From the NCBI GenBank assembly GCA_022508535.1, contig JAFLUZ010000002.1:63379-127378 (forward strand): DNA of 64,000 bases, written 5' to 3'. This DNA is from Erysipelotrichales bacterium (GTDB lineage Bacteria; Bacillota_I; Bacilli_A; RFN20; CAG-826). Made by a program: the position numbers and the translations under genes. How positions within the stretch are numbered: the first letter of the stretch is position 1; each line of letters starts with the position of its first letter. A model generated the notes under the pieces. That model saw nothing but the letters and a program-made list of their open reading frames with translations. It had not been told where the DNA came from and ran no database searches. Below, piece after piece: positions 28,302-43,312 of this stretch.

Positions 28302-28377
28302 GCTTACTTAGCTCAGTCGGTAGAGCTATCGGCTGTTAACCGATCGGTCGTAGGTTCGAGTCCTACAGTAAGCGCCA
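28302..28377 (+). tRNA. tRNA-Asn, anticodon GTT
   Basis: Acceptor GCTTACT/AGTAAGC, anticodon loop CTGTTAA, T-loop TTCGAGT, encoded CCA. Confidence 0.8.
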
Positions 28378-28385
28378 TTTTTATT

Positions 28386-28462
28386 GGCCTATTGGAGAAG
28401 CGGCTTAACTCACATGCCTTTCACGCATGCATTCATGGGTTCGAATCCCGTATAGGTCACCA
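28386..28462 (+). tRNA. tRNA-Glu, anticodon TTC
   Basis: Acceptor GGCCTAT/ATAGGTC, anticodon stem CATGC/GCATG, loop CTTTCAC, T-loop TTCGAAT, encoded CCA. The 3' end is part of the attL repeat. Confidence 0.8.
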
Positions 28463-28465
28463 TTT
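28447..28465. repeat. attL: 19-bp direct repeat cccgtataggtcaccattt (3' end of tRNA-Glu)
   Basis: An identical 19-mer recurs at 43294-43312. Confidence 0.7.
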
Positions 28466-28475
28466 TACAAAATCG

Positions 28476-28497
28476 CCGATTTTATCGGCTTTTTTTG
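28476..28497 (+). terminator. terminator after the tRNA pair
   Basis: Stem gccgat/atcggc with loop ttt and a 7-T run. Confidence 0.55.
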
Positions 28498-28501
28498 TGC
28501 C

Positions 28502-28542
28502 GTGATACTCTTGTGATACTGCTATGATACTGGCGTGATACT
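28502..28542. promoter_or_regulatory. four direct (G/A)TGATACT repeats at 11-bp spacing (putative integrase arm-type sites)
   Basis: gtgatact at 28502, 28513 and 28535; atgatact at 28524. They lie between attL and the 3' end of the integrase gene. Related copies gtgatact/ttgatact occur at 43157 and 43169 near attR. Confidence 0.5.
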
Positions 28543-28548
28543 TATATA

Positions 28549-29607
28549 CTATTGAAAGTATTGCGCCATTTTTGTTTTTCTAGATGGCAATAAATGAGCA
28601 TATACTCTTATAGTTGTAGATGTATCAGCATGGCCTAACCAGGAAGCCACCAGCTCAATCTCTGCACCTTTATTAAATAAATAAGTTGCGCATGAGTGTC
28701 TAAATTCATGCAACTTAATTACTTTCAAATTTGCGCGTTTGCAGTACTCTACTTGGGCACGTTTTATTGTTGTTTCTCCTATAACACATCCTTTCTTTTT
28801 GGTACTTGGGAATAGGAAATCATCATTTTTATGCTTAATTGATTCAGCATATTCTTCATACGCATATCGTATAGGAATGAGTAGTGGATAATCTCTCAAA
28901 CTAGCTGAAGATTTAACAGAAGTAATTACTTGCTTATGTGAGCCAGTTTTATTACTTACTGCGCGTTTTATATAAACTTTATCCATAACTATATCAGAGT
29001 GTTTTAATCCTCTTAGTTCTCCCATGCGCAATCCGTAATCAAATAGAAGTAGAAAGATTAATTTGTACATGGGTGAATCAATTACAGATAATAATTTTTC
29101 AAACTCTTCATAAGTGTAATAATCAAATTTCTTTGGTTCTACATATTGCTTTTTAAATACATACAAATTAGATTCAGTCACTGCAGGATCTAATCCGTAT
29201 TTTCTTAAAAACATTACATATACTTTTGCAAGAAATATGATATTAGTAATCGATTTAAGTTTAATTTTATTAACATTATTATTAAAAGTTTCTAGCACAT
29301 GATTAGTAACTTTTGATACTTTTAATTTACCGAAATATGGCAATAAATGTTGGTTGTAAAGATTGCTATATCGATACGCTGAAGCCTCTTTATATCTACT
29401 ATATAAATAATCAATGAATCTCTTTGTTAGATCTTCGCATATATATTCAGATTTCTTTTTATATGAATTGATTAGTGTAGGAATATAAGATGAAGCACTA
29501 CGTTTACTATCAAAGCCACGTTTAATATACTGCTTGTTATCGATAGTGATTTTTACATAGTATTTTTGCTCACCTTTTTTTGTTTTGTATCCATAAACGT
29601 TTTGCAT
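28549..29607 (-). CDS. tyrosine-type site-specific integrase
   Basis: C-terminal catalytic region HEFRHSCATYLFNKGAEIELVASWLGHADTSTTIRVYAHL (R..H..R..Y box). Confidence 0.85.
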   Translation of the reverse strand: MQNVYGYKTKKGEQKYYVKITIDNKQYIKRGFDSKRSASSYIPTLINSYKKKSEYICEDLTKRFIDYLYSRYKEASAYRYSNLYNQHLLPYFGKLKVSKVTNHVLETFNNNVNKIKLKSITNIIFLAKVYVMFLRKYGLDPAVTESNLYVFKKQYVEPKKFDYYTYEEFEKLLSVIDSPMYKLIFLLLFDYGLRMGELRGLKHSDIVMDKVYIKRAVSNKTGSHKQVITSVKSSASLRDYPLLIPIRYAYEEYAESIKHKNDDFLFPSTKKKGCVIGETTIKRAQVEYCKRANLKVIKLHEFRHSCATYLFNKGAEIELVASWLGHADTSTTIRVYAHLLPSRKTKMAQYFQ

Positions 29608-29781
29608 ATTAAGTTACTCCAAGATCTACCTGAACATAGTAATTTGATCCTGGATAACTTTTTATAATTTTGCGCGCTCCATAAGGAAACTCGCTTATGT
29701 TTTTTGGAATATGTGAAATAAAGAATTGCCTTTTATGGCATCTACAATTTTCATCAATATAGTTAATAATTAATAGCATTA

Positions 29782-30405
29782 TTATTCCACCTCCACATAT
29801 TGATAACTTTGAGGAGGCCGTTTAATACAATATTCCTGATGTAAATCTTTAAATAATTTATCAAAAACATTTTCATGATTTGCATAACATTCCATACCGA
29901 TATAATCCTCTTGAGATGATTCTAAATCTGTAAGCTCTTCTGAAAATCCTATTTTATGAAAATCACTTAATTCCATTGGAAAATTAAATGTTTGCAAATT
30001 GTCTATATACCAAGCGTAACCAGTTTTTCCTTTTCCGATATAATTAGATACTTCATCGTATGATAAACAACTTTTTTCCAAGTCGTTATAATTCCAATTT
30101 TGAATAGATCCATTATCAAATACACATATTTGCTCAACTTTATTTAAAGTAAATTTAGCAACTACATTTCCGTTGCCCATATATCCACCAATCGGAATTG
30201 CTGTTTCTCGATTAATAGCATACATGTATTTGGCTCCATAAGAATTTACAACTAGAGCATCGTGTATGCTGCTTTTCGTGCAATAAACATACACATCAAT
30301 TGGAAAATCGCATTTAGGTATTGTTTTTCTAATTTCAATTGTCTTTTCACCATTCAAGATTTTTTCAACCCACTTAGGTTGTATTGATATCAATATAGCT
30401 TTCAT
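29782..30405 (-). CDS. ASCH-domain protein
   Basis: N-terminus MKAILISIQPKWVEKILNGEKTIEIRKT matches the ASCH/PUA-like beta-barrel opening. Confidence 0.5.
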   Translation of the reverse strand: MKAILISIQPKWVEKILNGEKTIEIRKTIPKCDFPIDVYVYCTKSSIHDALVVNSYGAKYMYAINRETAIPIGGYMGNGNVVAKFTLNKVEQICVFDNGSIQNWNYNDLEKSCLSYDEVSNYIGKGKTGYAWYIDNLQTFNFPMELSDFHKIGFSEELTDLESSQEDYIGMECYANHENVFDKLFKDLHQEYCIKRPPQSYQYVEVE

Positions 30406-30647
30406 ATATTTACCTCCTTAACTTGATTAAAAATAGATATTGTATATAATTAAGATGGAAGTGGGGATCCTCATACCTCTCCAGCTTCTGGCAAGCTTGT
30501 TCTAGCTTGTCTTTTTTTTGTTTATAAATTCATCAATGATTATTGATATATATCCTTTACCAGGACAATTAGTCATATCAATAAGTCCAGTATCAAAAAC
30601 TATAGGTTTCTTATTTAGAAATTCTGGTAATTGTTTTTTATTTTTTT

Positions 30648-31154
30648 TCATAAATGATAATCCACCCATTGTTTTGTTTTAAGATTATAATTCCATATAC
30701 CAAAGCAATAATTCCCATGAATATTGTATTGACTTATAACTATAGAATCAGAAATAACATCGTATTCATGTGTTACTCCATCTATAAATTTTTCAACATC
30801 GTCTTTATTCCATAATTTAGCCTGACTATAAAGTTCGTAGTTATCTTCATCTTCATAAGGATTTCCTAACACTTTAAATTCAACTTGATAATATAATTTA
30901 TCCATAACTATCAAATCTGCTTCTATTAAATCTTTAGCATAAGGTTTTGGATTGATATATATACCAGGTGTAAGTAAATATGATGGCGATGATTTATTAC
31001 CATAAATTACTTCAACGAAATTTGTATGCTTATCTACAACTAAAAAATATGTTTTACTGCGAAATTCTTTTATTTTTTTGTAGTATGCCCAACAGTCTTC
31101 TTCAAATCCAAACTGCTTGAGAATTTTTAAATCAACATTATTTTTAATTTTCAT
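30648..31154 (-). CDS. hypothetical protein (paralog of the gene at 32130-32420)
   Basis: Shared N-terminus KIKNNVDLKILKQFGF versus KIKDNVDLCILENYGF and shared C-terminal KDLI.A.L motif. Confidence 0.4.
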   Translation of the reverse strand: MKIKNNVDLKILKQFGFEEDCWAYYKKIKEFRSKTYFLVVDKHTNFVEVIYGNKSSPSYLLTPGIYINPKPYAKDLIEADLIVMDKLYYQVEFKVLGNPYEDEDNYELYSQAKLWNKDDVEKFIDGVTHEYDVISDSIVISQYNIHGNYCFGIWNYNLKTKQWVDYHL

Positions 31155-31164
31155 ATTTGTTCTC

Positions 31165-31725
31165 CTATATCCAATAAAGTTTTTCTGTAAGTTCTGGAAT
31201 GTTGTAACAGATCCAGCAACATGCAGTATTGAAAGATGATTTTTTATTTAAGAATTTAATTCTCTTTTTAAAAATTATTATTGATAAACCATCTTTATAT
31301 TTTTCATATAAATCTGCGCGTTTAGGTGTTTCTAAAGTAGAAAGAGGAAGAAGCAAGGCAAACGATTTAATCTTTTTGGACTCTATTAAATCAAAGCTTC
31401 TTTTGATGATTTCGTACTGTAGACTAAATGGTGGATTGCTTATCATTAAGTCGCATCCAGGTGGTGGATTTGTTTTAAAGAAATCATTGCCTAAATCATC
31501 AAATTTATGTGTGGCTTTATATTGCAGTTTAAGCTCATCAGCTTTTAACTTAAATTCACTGTCGTAATGATTAAATGGAAACCAACACATTTTAAAAGAT
31601 TGAATATTAATTAAATTATATATTTGTTCCACTACCCAGCGTGGAGTTGCTACATGATCAGAATTATTAATACAATCATGTGTGTAAACACTTATGTTAT
31701 TTATTACAAGCTGCATATTTACCAC
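31165..31725 (-). CDS. putative phage-type DNA N6-adenine methyltransferase
   Basis: NPPF catalytic motif (CDLMISNPPFSLQYE); 186 aa. Confidence 0.45.
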   Translation of the reverse strand: MVNMQLVINNISVYTHDCINNSDHVATPRWVVEQIYNLINIQSFKMCWFPFNHYDSEFKLKADELKLQYKATHKFDDLGNDFFKTNPPPGCDLMISNPPFSLQYEIIKRSFDLIESKKIKSFALLLPLSTLETPKRADLYEKYKDGLSIIIFKKRIKFLNKKSSFNTACCWICYNIPELTEKLYWI

Positions 31726-31964
31726 CTTAGATTTTTAAACCGAATAAGAAAACTATTTTTCCAACATGGTTTTATTTCTGTTATCTCAAATAGATTTGTT
31801 GGTGATATAGGTACAGCAATACCTTTCCCAATAACAAAATGAATTAAATCATTTTCGCTTGGTGCAGAGTTATTTTGATTAGGTAAAATTATCATCTCTT
31901 TTAAATTGCCTTGTTGAATATCTTTCCAATCCTTAGTACGGATACTTATATTATGTAATTCCAT
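31719..31964 (-). CDS. hypothetical protein
   Basis: 81-aa ORF in the operon; no motif recognised. Confidence 0.35.
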   Translation of the reverse strand: MELHNISIRTKDWKDIQQGNLKEMIILPNQNNSAPSENDLIHFVIGKGIAVPISPTNLFEITEIKPCWKNSFLIRFKNLRW

Positions 31965-31970
31965 GCATTA

Positions 31971-32129
31971 TCACCTTCTTATAAAAAGCAATAGATCCTT
32001 TTGCTTTGGAAATAAATGATTTGAAGGTAATTGATTATCAGCAAAAGTAACTGGATTATTATGAGGTTTGCCTCTGAGTGCCAGTGATCTATACATCTTT
32101 CTAAAATGATTCCAATTTGTATTTTCCAT
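31971..32129 (-). CDS. conserved small ORF (52 aa) shared with element B
   Basis: MENTNWNHFRKMYRSLALRGKP...KQKDLLLF versus MKKTNWNNFRKNYRLLAHKGGTP...KKQRDLF at 56585-56749. It is not in the ORF track. Confidence 0.4.
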   Translation of the reverse strand: MENTNWNHFRKMYRSLALRGKPHNNPVTFADNQLPSNHLFPKQKDLLLFIRR

Positions 32130-32420
32130 TTATATCACCTCAACTAATCCAGCATCAATTAAATCTTTAAAATGTTTTTTATTGACATTGACTGGTTTGC
32201 CATCTCGCTTAGTTGGAAATAAATAACCATAAGGCCATATGTTTTTATTATCATATAGACTAACGATTAAATCACTTGTGCGTATGACTAAGTAATATAT
32301 ATTCCATGAACGCGCATTATAATCAGGCAAATTCTTTTTCCAATATTGATAGTGTCCATCATAAGTAAATCCATAGTTTTCTAAAATGCATAAATCTACA
32401 TTGTCTTTTATTTTATACAT
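32130..32420 (-). CDS. hypothetical protein (short paralog of the gene at 30648-31154)
   Basis: See the paralog entry. Confidence 0.4.
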   Translation of the reverse strand: MYKIKDNVDLCILENYGFTYDGHYQYWKKNLPDYNARSWNIYYLVIRTSDLIVSLYDNKNIWPYGYLFPTKRDGKPVNVNKKHFKDLIDAGLVEVI

Positions 32421-32431
32421 GTGCGTTCCCC

Positions 32432-33232
32432 CTAAAAATCTGTAACTTCTTGCTTGCGCAAACGCCTAGATTTACCAGTGATTTTTAATACTACAGAAGA
32501 TAGTTCATTAATTCGATCAATCGTTTTTTGCTCGTAGCCGTTACAGAACAACTCTCTAATACTTTGATTGGATGTAAATATTACTGGTTTACGTATTGAG
32601 TATCGAAGATTAATCATGTCGTATATTTTTGATTTAGCAAATTGTGAATCGGCTTGTTCTGAGCCTATGTCATCAATAAAAAGGAAATCGACTAATTTTA
32701 AAGATTTCATAATATCTTCTTCAGTCTCTTTTGAGCCATTAAAAGTAGAAGTGATACGCTTAATTAATGAAGATATGTTTGTGAATAAAACTTTATAACC
32801 AGATTTCATTAATTGATTTGCCATGCACGCGATTAAATGTGTCTTCCCAACACCTACATCTCCGTATATATAAATACCTAGATTTTTTTGTAAAATCACT
32901 GCAGCATTAGTACAGTATCTTTTGCACCTTGCATAAGCGTTATTAAATTCTGGATTATCTCCAATCTCACATGTGTCGAATGAACAATTTGTATAACGCG
33001 AATCCATAAGTGAAGCATCTTTTAAATTACTTATTATCTCACGTTCATAATCAGCAATAGCAGCATCTACAGCTTGCTGATTTCTTTTAGCTTTAATTTC
33101 ATCCCATATTGTTGATGGAATTTGCTCCCAGATAGTATCAGGAATTAAATCCATTTCCTCATCAGACATAGACATTATTTTTTCAGCTGTAAGTTCTGAT
33201 GCATCATTAATTGTTATCATGTGTTTCACCAC
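32432..33232 (-). CDS. DnaC/IstB-like AAA+ helicase-loader ATPase
   Basis: Walker A IYGDVGVGKTHLIACMANQL and Walker B LFIDDIGSE. Confidence 0.75.
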   Translation of the reverse strand: MVKHMITINDASELTAEKIMSMSDEEMDLIPDTIWEQIPSTIWDEIKAKRNQQAVDAAIADYEREIISNLKDASLMDSRYTNCSFDTCEIGDNPEFNNAYARCKRYCTNAAVILQKNLGIYIYGDVGVGKTHLIACMANQLMKSGYKVLFTNISSLIKRITSTFNGSKETEEDIMKSLKLVDFLFIDDIGSEQADSQFAKSKIYDMINLRYSIRKPVIFTSNQSIRELFCNGYEQKTIDRINELSSVVLKITGKSRRLRKQEVTDF

Positions 33233-33359
33233 CTTTTATAAAATCCTTAATTACCTTATAATTTGGTGATTTTGGTGTAAGTGATAAATAGATATTGCCA
33301 CTATCATGATGCATGTATAATTCATCAAGAAGTGCTTTTAATAATTTCTTTTTGTTCAT
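33225..33359 (-). CDS. 44-aa small ORF translationally coupled to its neighbours (ATGA overlap upstream, 8-nt overlap downstream)
   Basis: MNKKKLLKALLDELYMHHDSGNIYLSLTPKSPNYKVIKDFYKRW; not in the ORF track. Confidence 0.25.
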
Positions 33360-33550
33360 TGTTTTTTCTCCTGGATAAATGATAATTTTTGTATTTTAGA
33401 TTTATTGATTACATGTGTAATATTTCCTACTTTTACATGTAATTGTTTAGGTGATTCTTTAATTAAATCGCCGATAATAGAAATAACTTTTGTGCGCCGT
33501 ATGAGGCAATTGGGTTCTAACATCCAGTACACAACATTTACTTTGCGCAT
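33356..33550 (-). CDS. hypothetical protein
   Basis: 64-aa ORF directly downstream of the large membrane protein. Confidence 0.3.
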   Translation of the reverse strand: MRKVNVVYWMLEPNCLIRRTKVISIIGDLIKESPKQLHVKVGNITHVINKSKIQKLSFIQEKKQ

Positions 33551-35763
33551 TACTCTTCATCTCCATATTTAATATTGAAAAATTGTTTAGCAGCAAAAGA
33601 ATGCATACCTTTCCATTCGCTCGGAGATGGTGTTAAAGTTTTAAAAGTTGGCAAGTCGTCGAAATCTAATTTTGATCCATTCATACGCTCCAAATATCCT
33701 TTATGCAAATTTGCAGTGTTGTATCGGCCATATGCGATTTTATGGAATAAATAAATAATATCTTTTGAATACTCCTCTGATTTAACATCCTCAAGAGAAC
33801 CATTAGAACGATAAACATGATATTCATCAAATGAGTATAAATTTATTCTTTTTAAATAGTAGAAGTATAGGATGCTCACAATATTAGACACTAAATAGTT
33901 TGGTAAACTTTTATTAATCTTGATTTCTTCACGCTTCAGCGTATATTCATCAAAATGTTGTAGGATCCATTTAAGAACAAATTGCTCAAACCACCAATGT
34001 TGAAGACCAAATTTCTTTTTTATATTCCCAGTGTCTAAGGTAATAACAGTTTCAAAAGTGCCACGTGTTTCTTTGTTTACACCAGTATTCTTCTGATCGT
34101 TTCCAAGAAATTTAAAAGCTGGTTTTTTTCTTAGTGAAGCACCATGTCGCCATGTTTTTAAATTATCAGTGGCCTTATCATTATTGCGATTAACTCCAGA
34201 TGCTAAATTTGATTCTTTTTTCAAAGTATCAGAGTTTCCACGTTCCTTACCAAATTCTGTGAACAAAAATAGTCCAAAATCATAGAAATAGTAATCTGGT
34301 TTTTCATAATTAGCAAATTTTAAACCTGGTCGCATAAAGTCATAATTAACTATTACACATGATTTTCTTTTTAGATATTCTTTTGGTGTTTCTTTTAAAA
34401 TGTTTGTTTTATCAATGTTTAAATAGTGAGGTTTAGGATTTGTGTTATCGTTGAACATTACAGTATAATTGGCAACAGCATATGGGTTTTTATGTATGTA
34501 TAAGAAATACGCTAAAATCCAATCTCTTAAAGCATCTGTAAATGATTCGAATGTAAGACCATCCCACATTTTGTATTTTGAACCTGGTTCTAGATATAAA
34601 AGACTATAATCTTTAGTTATCTTGAATTTTTTTTCAAGTTCTGCAACATAGATATAAATATCTAATTGGTTATGGAATACACGAGTTTTCTTGTAGAATT
34701 CGACTTCACTCATCCATTTTGACCAGTTCGCTTGTGGAAATCTTTTTTGAATATCTAACATAGTGTTAAGAAGTTGTTTAGGAAACATTATCTGTTTATA
34801 GATAACTCCTAAACAAGTTCCAAGTGCATCCTTACCAGCTCCTGATATGCCTAAGAAAAGAATTTGTTGCCCAGAAGTATCTAAAAATTCTATATCATGA
34901 TCTAATTTCTTTTCCATAGTTTTATCTGCTTTGTATAATCTCCATAAATCAAAAAGTAGATAATAACTTATAAATCTTAAAGGAAAAGGAATTGTAAGCC
35001 ATTTAGGAAGAAAATCAATAAGTATTGTTAATAGACCTTTCCAGATGATACTCCAATCCACAGTTCTATTAATGACAGTTCCTAAAAAATGAAAGTAATT
35101 TGAAATTAGATCCAATAGAATTACTGGAAGATTTAGATAAATAGCAAATATTATTATCAGCATGACTGTTAACCATTTTTTGAAGAATTTCTTGCGCCAT
35201 GTATTAACCTTATTGAACAATTTAATAGATGGATTCCTAATTCTCTTTTTATATCGTTTAAGCGCTCTTGTATCTTCAGCAACATCATTTTTCTTATATC
35301 TTCTGAATAGTGATAGCAAAAGACCAAATAGCACTAATACAAGTATTAAATTAAAATATATGAGTGCCTTATCCATTTTGAAAGATAACTCTATACCTAT
35401 GAATTTCCAAAATGTACCATTTATAAGAAACGCAACAAAAACTTTAGCTCGTTTTATTAGTATCTGGAAGTCAATTGGAATAAGGTTAAGAATGGAGCCT
35501 CCAGCGTTCTCAATTAAATGATCAAGTGGAACTTGCAATGTTCCAGGACTATCTTTATTAGCTGTTATATAATAAATTGCAGATTGAAAGAAGTATTTAA
35601 TAGTAATCCATAGTCTTTTGACATTATCGAATGAGAAAAGAAAAAATAAAACCAATAACAAAACTAAAAATATTAATTGCTTCCAGTTGTTTTTAATAAA
35701 CTGATTAATCGCAATCAAAAAGTTAAGAAATATTGATTTTATTTTATTGAAAAATATTCTCAT
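33550..35763 (-). CDS. large polytopic-membrane P-loop-like protein (core module of elements A and B)
   Basis: Five or more N-terminal TM helices, P-loop-like GISGAGKD and the shared motif FLFTEFGKERGN. It is homologous to the gene at 54393-56543 (VLITEGGKERGN). Confidence 0.5.
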   Translation of the reverse strand: MRIFFNKIKSIFLNFLIAINQFIKNNWKQLIFLVLLLVLFFLFSFDNVKRLWITIKYFFQSAIYYITANKDSPGTLQVPLDHLIENAGGSILNLIPIDFQILIKRAKVFVAFLINGTFWKFIGIELSFKMDKALIYFNLILVLVLFGLLLSLFRRYKKNDVAEDTRALKRYKKRIRNPSIKLFNKVNTWRKKFFKKWLTVMLIIIFAIYLNLPVILLDLISNYFHFLGTVINRTVDWSIIWKGLLTILIDFLPKWLTIPFPLRFISYYLLFDLWRLYKADKTMEKKLDHDIEFLDTSGQQILFLGISGAGKDALGTCLGVIYKQIMFPKQLLNTMLDIQKRFPQANWSKWMSEVEFYKKTRVFHNQLDIYIYVAELEKKFKITKDYSLLYLEPGSKYKMWDGLTFESFTDALRDWILAYFLYIHKNPYAVANYTVMFNDNTNPKPHYLNIDKTNILKETPKEYLKRKSCVIVNYDFMRPGLKFANYEKPDYYFYDFGLFLFTEFGKERGNSDTLKKESNLASGVNRNNDKATDNLKTWRHGASLRKKPAFKFLGNDQKNTGVNKETRGTFETVITLDTGNIKKKFGLQHWWFEQFVLKWILQHFDEYTLKREEIKINKSLPNYLVSNIVSILYFYYLKRINLYSFDEYHVYRSNGSLEDVKSEEYSKDIIYLFHKIAYGRYNTANLHKGYLERMNGSKLDFDDLPTFKTLTPSPSEWKGMHSFAAKQFFNIKYGDEE

Positions 35764-35782
35764 AATAATTCCTCCTGCAGAA

Positions 35783-36211
35783 TTAATACTCGTAAAAATA
35801 AATATTATTGGTTATATCTAGTAGTCCATCCTTAACGAAATAAAGTTGCGTATCTTCCAATTCAGGATTGAGAAAATCTACATTAATTAAATAGTTCTCT
35901 GAATCAATTTCATAAGTGTAATAATAGATTTCTCGATTAATGATATTTTCTTCATCATCAAACTCATATTGATAATAAGTTCCAAGAAAATCATGCTCGC
36001 TATCGAATTCATAAATCATTCGTATATCATCTGTAAAAAATGTTTTGCCTAAAACACTCATATCAGCATCAATAATTGACATAGAATACTGATAAGCATT
36101 TTTTAAAATAAATAAAATGATAAGTATAAATACTACTAATAGCAGTCTTAAAAAGAATTTAAGCTTTTCGCCTTTATCAAATTTGATATTAGAATCAGGA
36201 GTCATTATCAA
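35783..36211 (-). CDS. small TM protein
   Basis: N-terminal TM helix LLLVVFILIILFIL; acidic Tyr-rich ectodomain. Confidence 0.4.
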   Translation of the reverse strand: MIMTPDSNIKFDKGEKLKFFLRLLLVVFILIILFILKNAYQYSMSIIDADMSVLGKTFFTDDIRMIYEFDSEHDFLGTYYQYEFDDEENIINREIYYYTYEIDSENYLINVDFLNPELEDTQLYFVKDGLLDITNNIYFYEY

Positions 36212-38460
36212 GTCCTCTTATTGGGTTTCTTACCAAATTCATCTAGAATCCATTTTATTAAAAATACAACAGCTACAATGACAACAAGTATAGCAATCCA
36301 CTTAAAAGTATTAGTGAAAAAATATCCCAGTTTATCCCAGAATGTTTCTTTGTGAAATATATTGTCTGGAGGTTCCACTTCGTTACCTATTGGATCTTTT
36401 AAAGTTCCAGTTTCCTCATCGTAGTGCAAAGGTAATTCATTACCCTCATCATCCATAATGACTGTATCACCATTTTTATCAAACGCAGTCAACCCAGAAT
36501 GATTGCCCCATGTCATAGCCGAAGCATTTACAATATCACCAGCTTCATTTATATAAAAACATTCAATAAGACTGTCAAAATCAAGATTGACACCCCTATT
36601 ATAAATAACATAAGTATATGGTGCCAAACGACCGAATTCCCCTATAAATGTATAAGCATTTTGATCAGCCAATGAAACACCTTGAAAAGTAAATTCAACA
36701 CCAGTTGATTCATCTTTTTTTGTAACATGATTATTCTTTTCATCTACATAATCTATAATAGGATGTTGAAAAACATTTCCATCATAAGCAATACCAGCTT
36801 GGATTCCATCACCAGAAAGAATATCAAAACTGTGTCTTACTTTATTTTTCTCACTTGCTAATGTATAGTAAAATTTAATACCATGTAGCTTATCAATTTG
36901 ACAATTAATAACACTATCATAGACATTAAAGAATAAACGTGTATAGGGTGATAATATACTTTCTACTTCTCTAGCTTCAAATTTTGCAGTATGAATTGTT
37001 GTCTTATCGACATACTTAAATTTATAGTATTGCCCACAATCAATGACATAATCAAGTATGTTTTTTGGTTCATCTGCAGCAGCTGTAACTGCATAAGTAG
37101 AAGATGATTGATTTTTTAATCTTGATGGTAATTGAACAAGTGATTCAATCTTATCTTTGCCAAACTTTGCAGTTGGATCTAAAGTCCTTTTCCAATCATC
37201 AGGAGTTACCATTAAAGATTCTGAAACTTCATTAGTAAGTTTACCAAGAGTAATATGATATTTGATTTCAGTGATATAAAAATCAACTTCTTGCTTAGCG
37301 TTCTTTAATTGCTCAAAGAAATCGCAGCTTGCAGTATCATAAGTGAAAGCAACACCATTATATTTCAAGTTATATTGTTGCATTTTTTCATAAAGAGAAT
37401 TATCAAAATCTAGTACATTATGAAATAAATCTAAATTGCGTATTTTACATTCAATCTCAAGATCATCATTTATAACTATAGAATCAACAACATATCTGTT
37501 CGCAGATACGGATGATATTGTTGACATTACACCCGTATTAAAATCAATGTTATTAATTAAAATTGGACCAAAAACTGAATGATTATAGCAATCTTTTTCT
37601 AAATAAAGATTTTGGACTAAAAATTCATAAGTTCCGATTGTGATAAATCCATAATTATTTAGCATTGATCTTTCATGACCTGTATAGATGCGCCAATACT
37701 TAGCAGACACTGTTTCTATATGTCTACGGTATGGGATTTCAACATACACAAATCTATTTTTATTATAAGCATTAGAAGAATCAGTTGTTTTATCTAAATA
37801 TACATGTGCATCATCAGATGTAGTAAGCGTGAAATCATTACCAGTCTTTTCTAAACTTAAGATAGTTTGACCATCAATCTCAAGTAAAGGGAGTTCAAGA
37901 TCATACTGATATGGTAAAAATAATTTTTTATAAAATTCAAAAAAATCAGTGCCTAAATCAAGCTTAAATTCAATTGGTAATGCTTGGCCTTTATCATTTT
38001 CAATGCGTTCAAATTCATAATTAAAAGTGCCTTTTAAATCAAATAATGAGCAATATGTCCCACCAGCAATGAATAAAGCTGTATTAGATAATTGAGTTTT
38101 ATTTAAAGGATTATTCGAAGAATTTGACTTGTACAGAAGACTAAGCGCTTGAATTTTGTTCTCATACACGTAATCGGCATACGAATCCATCAAATCAGTG
38201 TTATATTCAAAGACTTCGTAATCATCATGATATTTTGTTGGATAAGTAGTGTTTATAAATTCAGTATCTTCATCATCAAAATATTCTTTGTTCTTTTGTT
38301 GAAGATATGAACTTGCTTTACCAGAAACAATTGTTTTTTCTTCTGCAACTGCAGTAGTAGTATTATTTTTAATTAATCCTGGTATTAAAGAAGATGCTAA
38401 TAGTAAAAGTGAATTTAATCCTAAAAGTAATTTATTCATGATACACCAACTCACTTTCAT
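36208..38460 (-). CDS. large type-I membrane protein (signal peptide + ~700-aa ectodomain + C-terminal TM anchor + basic tail); putative virion spike or adhesin
   Basis: Signal LLLGLNSLLLLASS..TAVAEE and C-terminus WIAILVVIVAVVFLIKWILDEFGKKPNKRT. The architecture matches the gene at 59790-62033. Confidence 0.45.
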   Translation of the reverse strand: MKVSWCIMNKLLLGLNSLLLLASSLIPGLIKNNTTTAVAEEKTIVSGKASSYLQQKNKEYFDDEDTEFINTTYPTKYHDDYEVFEYNTDLMDSYADYVYENKIQALSLLYKSNSSNNPLNKTQLSNTALFIAGGTYCSLFDLKGTFNYEFERIENDKGQALPIEFKLDLGTDFFEFYKKLFLPYQYDLELPLLEIDGQTILSLEKTGNDFTLTTSDDAHVYLDKTTDSSNAYNKNRFVYVEIPYRRHIETVSAKYWRIYTGHERSMLNNYGFITIGTYEFLVQNLYLEKDCYNHSVFGPILINNIDFNTGVMSTISSVSANRYVVDSIVINDDLEIECKIRNLDLFHNVLDFDNSLYEKMQQYNLKYNGVAFTYDTASCDFFEQLKNAKQEVDFYITEIKYHITLGKLTNEVSESLMVTPDDWKRTLDPTAKFGKDKIESLVQLPSRLKNQSSSTYAVTAAADEPKNILDYVIDCGQYYKFKYVDKTTIHTAKFEAREVESILSPYTRLFFNVYDSVINCQIDKLHGIKFYYTLASEKNKVRHSFDILSGDGIQAGIAYDGNVFQHPIIDYVDEKNNHVTKKDESTGVEFTFQGVSLADQNAYTFIGEFGRLAPYTYVIYNRGVNLDFDSLIECFYINEAGDIVNASAMTWGNHSGLTAFDKNGDTVIMDDEGNELPLHYDEETGTLKDPIGNEVEPPDNIFHKETFWDKLGYFFTNTFKWIAILVVIVAVVFLIKWILDEFGKKPNKRT

Positions 38461-39748
38461 TAATAGTTATGAAATAAAAATTATTATTAAATGATTGTAA
38501 AATAGTTCCTATTTCATTAATGTCAGTAACTTCATCTTCACCAGTCCAGTAGAAGAATGCTCCAGTGCCGGTATTACCCCATTCAAATACATTGTTTGAA
38601 TATGTAGTTTCTGTTTTAGTAGTTTGATCTGCATAATTTATTTGAGTTTCAATTTTTACTCTATATGCACGACCATAATCAATTGTGTAATTATCAACAT
38701 AAAACCATTTCGTATCCTCATACTTATTTAATGCTAGTTCATAATTTATTCCAGTCTCATCTTCTGATGTAGATTGTTGTAAATAATATGTTGTGAATGA
38801 TGAAGCGATTTCTTTTGTTTCAACTTCGTAGCAATGTTCTAGTGCGTATTTTGAATTGCCATAAATACTAACAAAATCAAATTCGATTTTTAAAGGTTTG
38901 CTAGGATCAAAATTTTTCTTTTCGCTTAATTCTAAGTTGTTGCAAAAAATACTATTTTTATCTAAATAAAGATGAGAATAATTTTGAGTGCTGGAAGTAG
39001 TAGAAAGTTCAGTATATTCGATTAGATTAATATTTTTTATTTCAATGTTAATAAAATTAGTGCTTAAATCATCAAAATAAGATAAGTCTAATGACTCACT
39101 TTCCCAAATATATCTTTTACCTGCAATAAATTCTGTTGGATGTTTTCTATCATCTTTTTCTTCATTTGAAGGATCATCAAATGTTGGTTGCTCAAGATTT
39201 AAAAAGTATAATCCGTTGCTAAATTCTTTGATAATCTTATCTTCTTCATTATTAATGAGTTTTAAAACTTCAGCATGAGAATCAGATTTACCAATATAGT
39301 AGAAAAAAGCACCAGTACCACTCCAACCCCATTCGTAATTATTGTTTGAGTAAGTTTTCTCAGTTTCAGATACACCATTAGCGTATAGCTTGATTGTGTC
39401 TATTCTAATTCTGTAGGCGCATCCATAATTTACATCGTAATTATAGAAGCAGTACCAATTTGGATCATATTCATCAATGCCGATTTGATATGGATTTAAT
39501 TGAAGTTCATAATAATCATTTGTTTCATTATTATATTGTTCTAAAATGTAAAAATTCTTTTTTTCAATTACTTCTCCAATAGATGGTAGTGATGGCTTTT
39601 TAGAAGTATTATTATCAGCGTTGGTTTTTACCGTAGCATAGACTACTCCACCTACAGTAATTACAGCTAATAAAATTAAAATAAATTTTAAAAATTTTTT
39701 CATGTTTTTGCTCCTTAAAAAATAAAGCGCATTTACAACTAGAATCAT
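38432..39748 (-). CDS. secreted or membrane-anchored protein with two ~130-aa repeat domains
   Basis: Repeats YELQLNPY...YGCAYRIRID...YSNNNYEWGWSGTGAFFYY and YELALNKY...YGRAYRVKIE...YSNNVFEWGNTGTGAFFYW. Homolog of the gene at 62055-63029. Confidence 0.45.
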   Translation of the reverse strand: MILVVNALYFLRSKNMKKFLKFILILLAVITVGGVVYATVKTNADNNTSKKPSLPSIGEVIEKKNFYILEQYNNETNDYYELQLNPYQIGIDEYDPNWYCFYNYDVNYGCAYRIRIDTIKLYANGVSETEKTYSNNNYEWGWSGTGAFFYYIGKSDSHAEVLKLINNEEDKIIKEFSNGLYFLNLEQPTFDDPSNEEKDDRKHPTEFIAGKRYIWESESLDLSYFDDLSTNFINIEIKNINLIEYTELSTTSSTQNYSHLYLDKNSIFCNNLELSEKKNFDPSKPLKIEFDFVSIYGNSKYALEHCYEVETKEIASSFTTYYLQQSTSEDETGINYELALNKYEDTKWFYVDNYTIDYGRAYRVKIETQINYADQTTKTETTYSNNVFEWGNTGTGAFFYWTGEDEVTDINEIGTILQSFNNNFYFITINESELVYHE

Positions 39749-39773
39749 AAATGCGCAATATGCTTTTAATAAA

Positions 39774-40004
39774 TTATTCTACGTAATTAATAACGTATGT
39801 ACCGTGCGCAGTTGCGACATCAGATGTTGATGTTTTATCACCATTAACTGCATCTTTGATGTTGTCCCATTTTTCTTTGGTTTCATCTAAGGTGTTTTTA
39901 AGTCCTTTGTTCCCCAAAGAAACTCCAGCTGCGATAACTCCAATTGATAGAAGTGCACCGAGAATGCCGAGACCTATTTTCGCCCAGATACTCTTTTTTT
40001 TCAT
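39774..40004 (-). CDS. small membrane protein
   Basis: One TM helix IGLGILGALLSIGVIAAGV. Confidence 0.4.
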   Translation of the reverse strand: MKKKSIWAKIGLGILGALLSIGVIAAGVSLGNKGLKNTLDETKEKWDNIKDAVNGDKTSTSDVATAHGTYVINYVE

Positions 40005-40030
40005 TGGTATTGCTCCTTTCTTAATTTTTT

Positions 40031-40327
40031 TTAGAATGGTAAGTCATCAACAGGATTGTTGTTGACTGGTTTATCTTCAGCAACTACGATTGGTTGCTTT
40101 GATAGTTTTTTTTCAGCTTTTTTATCGTGAAAGTATATAATCACTGCAGTTTTCATGACCTCAATAACAACCTGAGGAACACATCGGTTTTCTTTACATT
40201 TCTCTTTGTCATAGCGAAACTTGCAGGTTGGGCAATTACGAAGCTTTTTCAAAGCATTAAAACAATTTGTCATAGTAATATTATCTTCGGTTATTAACTT
40301 TGTTTTTTTTACTTTGCTTGCTTCCAT
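40031..40327 (-). CDS. small Cys-rich (zinc-finger-like) protein
   Basis: Spacing CxxxxxxxxxCxxC...C. Confidence 0.3.
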   Translation of the reverse strand: MEASKVKKTKLITEDNITMTNCFNALKKLRNCPTCKFRYDKEKCKENRCVPQVVIEVMKTAVIIYFHDKKAEKKLSKQPIVVAEDKPVNNNPVDDLPF

Positions 40328-40350
40328 CCTTTCTCACCCTCTTAAAATGT

Positions 40351-40635
40351 CTATTTAACTAATTCTTTGTATTTATTTGTAATCTTTGAATCGATTTTAT
40401 AAGCATATAACACGGCATCTTGAACGATTTTTTCGTAGATTGGAACATTATTTATTAGTTCATGCGTATTGCTAATTATTACATCCAGTACAATTGTTTT
40501 TTTTAATAAAGTTAGTTTGAATGTAACTGTACTTATAACACCATTTCCACAATCGAATATGTGAAGCTTTGTAAATAGATTTTTATTAATCTTCTTAAAA
40601 TCTATTGATTCTAAAAATTCAATGAATTTATCCAT
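40351..40635 (-). CDS. hypothetical protein
   Basis: 94-aa ORF that overlaps the upstream gene by 8 nt. Confidence 0.3.
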   Translation of the reverse strand: MDKFIEFLESIDFKKINKNLFTKLHIFDCGNGVISTVTFKLTLLKKTIVLDVIISNTHELINNVPIYEKIVQDAVLYAYKIDSKITNKYKELVK

Positions 40636-41080
40636 CTTTTAAGTCATCCTCGTATCCTGGTGGAAGTGAACGTTGCATTCTTGCTTCTGCACGCCTATCA
40701 GATTGTTCTTTTGCTTTTTGAGTAGTAGATGCTACCATATACGGAAAATCTGGAAGTATAATTGTTCCGGATGTGTCGTTTGCAAACTCAATTAATCCAA
40801 CTTCCTCAAATTCCTTTATTGTCTTTTCGACAAATTCAGGATCAAGTTTTAATACTTGAGCAAGAAGTTTAGATGAATATGGAGTTTTATAATTAAATCT
40901 TAAATACCCATCTTCTTTTCCTGATTTAACGACTAGATGAAGCATTCGTTCGTATAAATAAATCTTCATGTGCCATTTATCAAGTTCTTCACGTGTGGAT
41001 CCAACTAGCAATGCATTAAGGCGATCATCATCGTAGAAGTTGTTATATTTCTTTAAGTAGAATAATTTTCGTTCACTCAT
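40628..41080 (-). CDS. phage replisome-organizer N-terminal-domain protein (DnaD-like)
   Basis: N-terminus KLFYLKKYNNFYDDDRLNAL...IYLYERMLHLVVKSG..GYL fits the replisome-organizer pattern F..K.y.dFfdD.ki..L... Confidence 0.45.
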   Translation of the reverse strand: MSERKLFYLKKYNNFYDDDRLNALLVGSTREELDKWHMKIYLYERMLHLVVKSGKEDGYLRFNYKTPYSSKLLAQVLKLDPEFVEKTIKEFEEVGLIEFANDTSGTIILPDFPYMVASTTQKAKEQSDRRAEARMQRSLPPGYEDDLKDG

Positions 41081-41085
41081 TGGAA

Positions 41086-41466
41086 TTATCCTCTTTTAAC
41101 TAACTTGTAATCACTTGGTATGTCACCATATCTTAATAAATCAACAATTGTTATTGATGATAAAGCACTTATTCTAATTTTTCCAAGTCGCATAATTAAC
41201 TTGTCGATTGTATTGTCTAAAGTGATTTTATCTAAGTTGCTGAATCTTCTTAAAAGGTTCCGATGATCATTGTTTGCTGTGTCGCCGTTTTTTAGCAAAT
41301 AGATAATTGCCTCTTTTGCAATTTTTTTGATTCTCATTTTTGAAATCGAATTAATAAATATTTCAATTGAGTTGTTTAATTTGCTTTCATCAATGCCATA
41401 TAATTCTTTGGCTCTTTCAAAAAGAAGTTGATGCGCATAAGCTGTTGAATTCTTTTCTTCGTTCAT
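41086..41466 (-). CDS. hypothetical protein; first gene of the leftward early operon, divergent from the repressor
   Basis: RBS aggaggataaa lies upstream of the start. Confidence 0.35.
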   Translation of the reverse strand: MNEEKNSTAYAHQLLFERAKELYGIDESKLNNSIEIFINSISKMRIKKIAKEAIIYLLKNGDTANNDHRNLLRRFSNLDKITLDNTIDKLIMRLGKIRISALSSITIVDLLRYGDIPSDYKLVKRG

Positions 41467-41796
41467 AAATTTATCCTCCTGTCGATAAATCTTCCTGGTA
41501 TATCTTGTTTCCCTTTCGGGTGGTGCTCCTAGCTCCAGGAAAAGACTAGGAGTGCACCAAGGAGGAGTTATCTAACTTTATACCGTTTTTCAGGTACCCA
41601 ATTTTCCTCTTGGGAAACGAACTAACACTTTGAGGGCATTTTGGGTATGATATAAAGTTAGTTCGCTTCACAAGGGGAAAATACTTATTTCAGTTATTTA
41701 TAATGTTGTAAAACTCAACATTACATTATTAAAATACACAATTATTTCAACATTGTAAAGTATAAATATCGAAAAATCCAACAAAATGATATATTC

Positions 41797-42162
41797 ATGT
41801 TGGAGAAGAGTATGAAGAATTTAAAAATTTTGAGGAAAAGTCTAGGACTAACACAACAACAATTAGCAGATAAATTATTTGTAAATAGAAACACATATCA
41901 AAATTATGAGGCTGGCACAACTGAACCAGACTTTGCTACTGTCAAAAAAATTGCAAGTTTTTTTAATGTAACTATTGATTATTTGGTTGGAGCAAATGAA
42001 TCTGATTTAATTTTAATTTCTAAAGATGATTTCCAAAAATTAAAAATTGCAGCTGAAGTAATCGATAGAATATCTAAATCCACTAGTATTAATTTTGGTG
42101 ATATTAATCAAAGTAACGTTGTTATTGGAAACAACAACACTATAAAGAAACCAAAAAAATAA
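41797..42162 (+). CDS. XRE-family HTH repressor (cI-like)
   Basis: HTH LTQQQLADKLFVNRNTYQNYEAG; it sits at the element end and is transcribed divergently from the early genes. Confidence 0.75.
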   Translation: MLEKSMKNLKILRKSLGLTQQQLADKLFVNRNTYQNYEAGTTEPDFATVKKIASFFNVTIDYLVGANESDLILISKDDFQKLKIAAEVIDRISKSTSINFGDINQSNVVIGNNNTIKKPKK

Positions 42163-42184
42163 AAACATAATAGGAGGGCATAGT

Positions 42185-42379
42185 ATGATTTCATTTTTTG
42201 ATTTTTTAGTAAAAGCAGCAGAAGTAACTCCACCTGATAACATAGAACATTCAGGATATCCTGAAGCTCTATGGGGAAAGATTGGAATAGTGGCACTTAT
42301 TGTCGCTATAATAGTAATAATTGTTTTACTATTAATTATTTGGCGCAAGGTAACAGATATTGGAGATAAGATTAAGTAA
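42185..42379 (+). CDS. small single-TM protein (candidate superinfection-exclusion moron)
   Basis: RBS aggaggg; TM helix IGIVALIVAIIVIIVLLLIIW. Confidence 0.4.
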   Translation: MISFFDFLVKAAEVTPPDNIEHSGYPEALWGKIGIVALIVAIIVIIVLLLIIWRKVTDIGDKIK

Positions 42380-42406
42380 TTAACTAGTAGTAATCAAGTA
42401 AAAAAA

Positions 42407-42438
42407 ACGGCCACATGAACTTGGCCGTTTTCTTTTGG
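42407..42438 (+). terminator. rho-independent terminator
   Basis: Stem acggcca/tggccgt with loop catgaact, followed by tttcttttgg. Confidence 0.6.
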
Positions 42439-42466
42439 TCTATTTTTGGATCTAAAAAGTGCTCGG

Positions 42467-42496
42467 GCAAAAATTAGCGTGCACGCTAATTTTTGC
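42467..42496. promoter_or_regulatory. perfect 30-bp palindrome gcaaaaattagcgtg|cacgctaatttttgc
   Basis: The 15-mer and its exact reverse complement are adjacent; it lies in the non-coding right arm of element A. Confidence 0.4.
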
Positions 42497-42755
42497 ATAT
42501 TATTATATCGACTATGTCAAGTGCTTTTTGGGGAAGCGGTGGCGCCGACATGCGCCACACACTTCTCTTAACCCAAAAAGCAATATTTTTTTATGTTATG
42601 AATATAAACATAGACAAATTTTGTCTTACCATCGCATTAATTAAATTAATACTTGAACCAGTACATACATGTACCACCCTGTTCACATCCTTGCTATTTG
42701 AGATATGTATTTCAAAAATTGGAATGCAAAATATTATAGCAAGGAGATGAATAGG

Positions 42756-42830
42756 ATGTCAAAGAACTTCAGAAGAATTACTATACTAGTGATAATTTTT
42801 ACATTACTACTAATAATTTCAATTTCTTAA
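42756..42830 (+). CDS. 24-aa hydrophobic peptide ORF with a strong RBS
   Basis: aaggagatgaatagg then ATG; MSKNFRRITILVIIFTLLLIISIS. Confidence 0.2.
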   Translation: MSKNFRRITILVIIFTLLLIISIS

Positions 42831-43293
42831 TCCACCACGATTAATAATTTAACTCCGTAATTCTTTGAAAACCATTTGACATTCTACCTAATTACTTAAA
42901 TAAAATCAAGTAATTCACATGACACTTTACAAATTCAATATAACAATGTATTTTTTAAATAATTAATTATTTAAAAATTAAACTATATTAAGGAAAATAT
43001 TGTAAATATAGCTATAAATCTAAATATTACTATTAAAAAGGGGTGCAGGGGGAAAGCACACAAAATCACAAATTTAACACAAAATATATAATATTTGTGT
43101 TATAGAATTTATACGCAGAAAAACCCTGAGATTAAGCAGGGGAATTTTAAAATATTGTGATACTAAAATTGATACTCAATAATGTTAAAATTATAAATTT
43201 TTACATTGCTGGTATTTTTATTCAACGTTGAAATTCAAGATCAAATCTATATAATTACTTAATAGATTTGTTCTTATTTACTTTTACTATTTG

Positions 43294-43312
43294 CCCGTAT
43301 AGGTCACCATTT
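43294..43312. repeat. attR: second copy of the 19-bp tRNA-Glu 3'-end repeat
   Basis: gcccgtataggtcaccattt sits in a non-coding AT-rich stretch with no tRNA around it. Confidence 0.7.

Follow-up and report, generated by a model that had tools for sequence, protein, structure and literature searches.

Hardly any non-tailed phages are known from Gram-positive gut bacteria, and since such phages lack capsid and terminase genes, standard prophage finders overlook them. The pleolipoviruses of haloarchaea combine a conserved virion block (a small membrane protein, a C-terminally anchored spike and an NTPase) with varied replication modules and genome types. Actinomycete AICEs, elements of 9-24 kb, insert in tRNA 3' ends and transfer dsDNA via TraB. 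Acholeplasma phage L2 is a plasmavirus of ~12 kb with a tyrosine integrase, and L2-like proviruses integrate in tRNA genes (PMC12662186). For the IME1 elements of Dehalococcoides, a nature as dsDNA viruses, either budding or filamentous, has been proposed (bioRxiv 10.64898/2026.09.15.751708).

The locus described here lies in a window of 64 kb (the whole stretch of DNA analysed, 64,000 nucleotides) from an uncultured gut bacterium labelled 'Erysipelotrichales bacterium' at NCBI. It holds an element of 14,847 bp, measured core to core, which we read, at a probability of roughly 0.55, as an integrated temperate, non-tailed virus assembled at the membrane via a Zot/pI-like export module. The features that delimit the element and accompany its integrase are:

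28386..28462, plus strand: tRNA-Glu(UUC), the integration target (ARAGORN, ttc; Rfam tRNA, 55.6 bits)
28447..28465, plus strand: attL core, 19-bp exact direct repeat (exact repeat search)
28475..28496, plus strand: hairpin GCCGATTTTATCGGC then TTTTTTT, element-borne, terminator-like
28502..28542, plus strand: four (G/A)TGATACT repeats, candidate arm-type integrase sites (motif positions)
28549..29607, minus strand: tyrosine integrase, 352 aa (Pfam Phage_integrase 2e-23, Phage_int_SAM_3 1.9e-8, phrog_1 1.2e-46)
43158..43176, plus strand: two further TGATACT repeats, on the attR arm, separated from the core by 118 bp (starts 43158 and 43170)
43294..43312, plus strand: attR core, the displaced original tRNA 3' end, followed by native downstream sequence and a hairpin

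The insertion anatomy is firm. The 19-mer CCCGTATAGGTCACCATTT spans the 3' end of tRNA-Glu and therefore comprises the last 16 tRNA nucleotides, including CCA, plus TTT. It is present in exactly two copies in the window (28447-28465 and 43294-43312), their identity ending exactly at 19 bp on both sides; a third site was absent from the window even at 2 mismatches, and 0 matches were obtained in 100 shuffles. ARAGORN and Rfam recovered an intact tRNA-Glu with its last 16 nt inside the attL core, a tRNA-Asn upstream of it (28302-28377) and no tRNA around the second copy, and the Rfam search returned nothing but the tRNAs. An insertion at the tRNA-Glu 3' end that leaves the tRNA intact, marked by exact 19-bp direct repeats, had been claimed from the sequence-only reading and was upheld by the 19/19 repeat, its copy number and the tRNA searches; the length then given, 14.9 kb or 14,866 bp, counts both cores and is corrected here to the unit length. 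GC content was uninformative (0.295 within the element and 0.295 in the left flank).

The tyrosine integrase had been placed immediately inside attL, in agreement with its Pfam and PHROG matches, and its R-H-R-H-Y catalytic set is complete (R194, H300, R303, H326, Y336). On the attL side TGATACT starts at 28503, 28514, 28525 and 28536, with exact 11-bp phasing. All six copies near the cores (4+2) lie on the plus strand within 150 bp of a core; in the whole window, 25 copies were observed and 11.3 were expected. The earlier description of such repeats near both cores stands, except that the attR-side pair is spaced by 12 bp, not 11, and that the second of this pair reads TTGATACT and not (G/A)TGATACT. 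Judged by motif and placement, the repeats on both arms are likely arm-type integrase sites, and the element-borne hairpin and T-run appear placed to terminate the rebuilt tRNA transcript. In the proposed mechanism, a lambda-type integrase would recombine the 19-bp core of the element with the identical tRNA-Glu 3' end, such that the tRNA would stay intact and receive a new terminator from the element while the old 3' end would remain at attR.

An empty site was sought by look-up of a right-flank protein, and 3/3 assemblies holding the flank gene also carried the element; the three share the same gene neighbourhood and are apparently the same organism. The comparison with sister strains to which the sequence-only reading had pointed yielded lysogens alone, and the attP junction of the excised circle was absent from IMG/VR. 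These two null results would be expected of a defective remnant that has lost excision and spread, an explanation that we regard as very improbable, since the att cores are 19/19 identical, the ORFs of the operon are all unbroken and closely packed, the integrase retains its catalytic set, and the missing empty site rests on just three assemblies of apparently one organism. Three metagenome contigs that matched the predicted junction of tRNA-Glu and right flank were rejected, since they come from other species and differ in their flanks and adjacent tRNAs; in these contigs 'CCA-TTT-AAAAATAA plus hairpin' is the usual context downstream of this tRNA.

Genes other than the integrase and a block of membrane-associated genes are:

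29609..29779, minus strand: 56-aa ORF abutting the integrase gene, without family match
29782..30405, minus strand: ASCH-domain protein, 207 aa, accessory (Pfam ASCH 1.5e-4; phrog_3136 4.7e-28; PADLOC PDC-M11B 8.9e-15)
30648..31154, minus strand: 168-aa protein, function not assigned (paralogue of the 96-aa ORF at 32130-32420, 36% identity)
31165..31725, minus strand: DNA methyltransferase, 186 aa (phrog_799 2.5e-33)
32432..33232, minus strand: DnaC/IstB-like helicase loader, 266 aa (Pfam IstB_IS21 1e-14; phrog_50 1.2e-54)
40628..41080, minus strand: replisome organiser, 150 aa (Pfam Phage_rep_org_N 9.2e-10; phrog_5968)
41797..42162, plus strand: XRE/Cro-CI type repressor, divergent from the long minus-strand operon (Pfam HTH_3 2.5e-17)
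42185..42379, plus strand: 64-aa membrane protein of the repressor operon, one hydrophobic helix

The gene identities are likewise firm: the ASCH, methyltransferase, DnaC-like, replisome-organiser and divergent XRE calls of the sequence-only reading were all matched by Pfam or PHROG families. The stated absence of tailed-phage structural genes also held, in that searches with Pfam, PHROG and NCBIfam found no capsid, terminase, portal, tail, relaxase or VirB4/VirD4 family in the element, and megablast of the element against phage records gave no match. The element encodes a replisome organiser and a DnaC-like loader instead of a rolling-circle replication initiator. The position of the 56-aa ORF would suit an excision factor. 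The XRE repressor, co-transcribed with the small membrane protein, would face a 12-kb minus-strand operon consisting of a theta-type replication start, accessory genes (ASCH, methyltransferase) and the membrane block.

This 6.3-kb block (33550-40004), which the sequence-only reading had overlooked, is the most informative part of the element and contains five genes:

33550..35763, minus strand: membrane P-loop ATPase, 737 aa, polytopic, with Zot/pI-like predicted fold
35783..36211, minus strand: 142-aa single-pass membrane protein, kept in relatives, in the position of inovirus pVI
36208..38460, minus strand: 750-aa secreted protein with N-terminal signal-like helix and C-terminal membrane anchor
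38432..39748, minus strand: 438-aa secreted protein with two copies of a ~115-aa domain
39774..40004, minus strand: 76-aa protein with one N-terminal membrane helix, kept in relatives

In the ATPase, a helical membrane domain makes up the N-terminal ~295 aa and precedes the P-loop domain (K311, E503), which is followed by a C-terminal domain. The protein had no Pfam or PHROG match. Its predicted fold is nearest to Zot/pI, with Zot scoring clearly above any conjugation ATPase. The 750-aa protein had no family match (Pfam, PHROG) and no phage tblastn match; given its anchor, it is a candidate spike or receptor-binding protein, and the 76-aa protein is a candidate small structural protein. The 76-aa and 64-aa proteins each have one hydrophobic helix in a layout atypical for coat proteins, and neither matched a coat-protein family; the 64-aa protein is similar to the stem and anchor part of the 750-aa protein, with 55% identity across 22 aa.

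Likeness to filamentous phages (Tubulavirales: Inoviridae, Plectroviridae; 'cryptic inoviruses', Roux et al. 2019, PMC6813254) lies in this predicted fold, in a gene order (small membrane, large secreted anchored, small membrane, ATPase) that parallels g8-g3-g6-g1, in the short membrane proteins, in integration under repressor control, and in relatives that carry G2P or Rep_trans Reps directly after the ATPase gene. Unlike the filamentous phages, the element has an ATPase twice as long and without a Zot-family sequence match, replisome-organiser and DnaC genes rather than a rolling-circle Rep, and a 76-aa protein that lacks the succession acidic, hydrophobic, basic known from classical major coat proteins; its long membrane domain comes before the ATPase, while the membrane helix of pI is C-terminal, and its 14.8 kb stands at their upper size limit. 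Four of these differences count against virion export: the sequence-level link to Zot is missing (nothing in Pfam; the ATPase profile aligned to an inovirus Zot over 27 P-loop columns only, at 23% probability), the membrane domain is placed unlike that of pI, the 76-aa protein departs from the coat-protein layout, and known filamentous phages need a rolling-circle Rep for ssDNA. So does the failure to find the excised circle, the empty site or virome evidence in IMG/VR and the three assemblies.

The IME1 elements are alike, by description, in being integrative, in their tyrosine recombinase, repressors and dsDNA-type replication genes, in lacking tailed-phage hallmarks, and in having several membrane or signal-peptide proteins encoded after a pI-like ATPase; they differ in their length (21-28 kb), their primase-helicase and serine resolvase, an ATPase that is detectably pI-like by sequence, and their report from Chloroflexota only (bioRxiv 10.64898/2026.09.15.751708).

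Since the sequence-only reading had looked to Acholeplasma phage L2, a true plasmavirus, that is, an enveloped, budding dsDNA virus in a tRNA gene, was weighed as an alternative and is considered improbable. The L2 order ORF13, ORF14, ORF1, ORF2, ORF3, ORF4, integrase, attP resembles the order found here, and both are small temperate elements with a tyrosine integrase, tRNA-type integration (in L2 relatives), a large envelope protein that carries a signal peptide and an anchor (in L2 the 738-aa ORF13 protein), and, directly upstream of the integrase, a P-loop protein linked to the membrane. However, neither the 750-aa protein compared with ORF13 nor the 737-aa protein compared with ORF1 gave a significant BLASTP match, and hhalign of the two ATPase families aligned only 27 P-loop columns at 20% probability. 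Close kinship was rejected at the sequence level, where the comparisons gave no more than the P-loop and a generic, superfamily-level integrase match (26% identity); a weak fold match for L2 ORF3 remains. L2 also differs in its 312-aa ATPase, its reliance on host replication proteins and its wall-less host, whereas a LysM-GH18 protein encoded in the window suggests that the present host has peptidoglycan. Because of this protein, a cell wall is probably present and any particle would have to cross it, a further point against the preferred reading.

Relatives of the ATPase were found as 344 metagenomic cluster representatives at E<=1e-3, nearly all full-length (700-750 aa), with conserved Walker A, TExGKERGN and other motifs. 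Close-relative patterns found no member in IMG/VR and a degenerate motif scan of it found two true members; a scan of GTDB genomes gave one relative only, in an uncultured Bacilli MAG. The contexts L004, L007, L012 and L014 show the gene order of the block again: small membrane protein, secreted proteins, anchored protein, small membrane protein, ATPase. Of these, L007 is 13.1 kb long and delimited by a 19-nt repeat at a tRNA-Thr 3' end, its integrase adjoining the tRNA. In six other contexts a rolling-circle Rep directly follows the ATPase gene, of G2P type in a second element of the window, L001, L021 and L023 and of Rep_trans type in L014 and L017; the nearest named phage relatives of the G2P Rep are Zot-encoding Inoviridae. 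The conservation of the block across differing replication genes, either theta-type with an integrase or rolling-circle, is firm.

This conservation bears on a PICI-like phage satellite, which would spread in helper-phage particles with the membrane block as cargo. The size (~15 kb), the int, XRE and replication modules and the absence of capsid and tail genes fit such an element, and the same reading was first proposed for the IME1 elements (bioRxiv 10.64898/2026.09.15.751708). It is nevertheless improbable here: Pfam and PHROG revealed no small terminase, capsid-remodelling or other packaging-hijack gene in the element, no tailed prophage is visible within the 64-kb window, and no part other than the membrane and ATPase block persists in relatives that span three different replication systems. 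The block behaves as core and not as cargo, because it alone persists and because the 9-kb minimal relatives consist mostly of it.

A small conjugative or mobilisable element, in which a single membrane translocase like AICE TraB moves dsDNA from cell to cell and the surface proteins are adhesins, is somewhat less improbable, though still unlikely. AICEs resemble the element in size and in their insertion at tRNA 3' ends; the Rep_trans family includes MOB-T relaxases, and Rep_trans proteins adjoin the ATPase in two of the contexts above. On the other side, no FtsK_SpoIIIE, TraG/VirD4 or VirB4 Pfam family was among the matches listed for the ATPase family, the Zot fold outscores the conjugation ATPases, 0/72,556 plasmids hold a family member, and the G2P Reps that accompany the family belong to the phage type and not to the relaxase type. 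The ICE/IME set of relaxase, coupling protein and VirB4-type ATPase was found to be absent from the element (Pfam, PHROG, NCBIfam).

Under the preferred reading, a membrane-assembled non-tailed virus, the membrane block would serve as the virion assembly and export module, with the ATPase driving DNA through the membrane into a particle that bears the anchored surface protein, has no capsid or tail and probably leaves without lysis. We infer particle production itself, and the particle could be a filament or a vesicle packaging dsDNA or ssDNA. If particles are made, these elements would add a lineage to the chronic, non-lytic gut phages, supply a usable marker gene for finding more of their kind, and show in a natural setting whether export machinery of the pI type can handle dsDNA replicons. 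The marker would be the ATPase family, which counts hundreds of clusters in metagenomes, is covered by neither Pfam nor PHROG models and anchors small tRNA-integrating elements.

The element is probably a member of a little-known lineage of non-tailed viruses. More tentatively, the ~730-aa membrane ATPase and its neighbours may define an undescribed non-tailed virus lineage of gut Firmicutes, whose particle-forming block is combined at will with rolling-circle (ssDNA-type) or theta (dsDNA-type) replication modules. The element would then be a dsDNA virus whose export machine is of the kind that filamentous phages use. Among Firmicutes it would parallel the IME1s of Chloroflexota, and it would be a bacterial counterpart of the pleolipoviruses, which would resemble it in joining one virion block to differing replication modules and differ in their archaeal hosts.

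The second element in the window is itself a rolling-circle relative. Two related elements with different replication systems thus reside in one genome and share a surface-protein domain, with 65% identity between the C-terminal domain copy of the 438-aa protein and a second-element protein, which suggests module exchange between co-resident elements.

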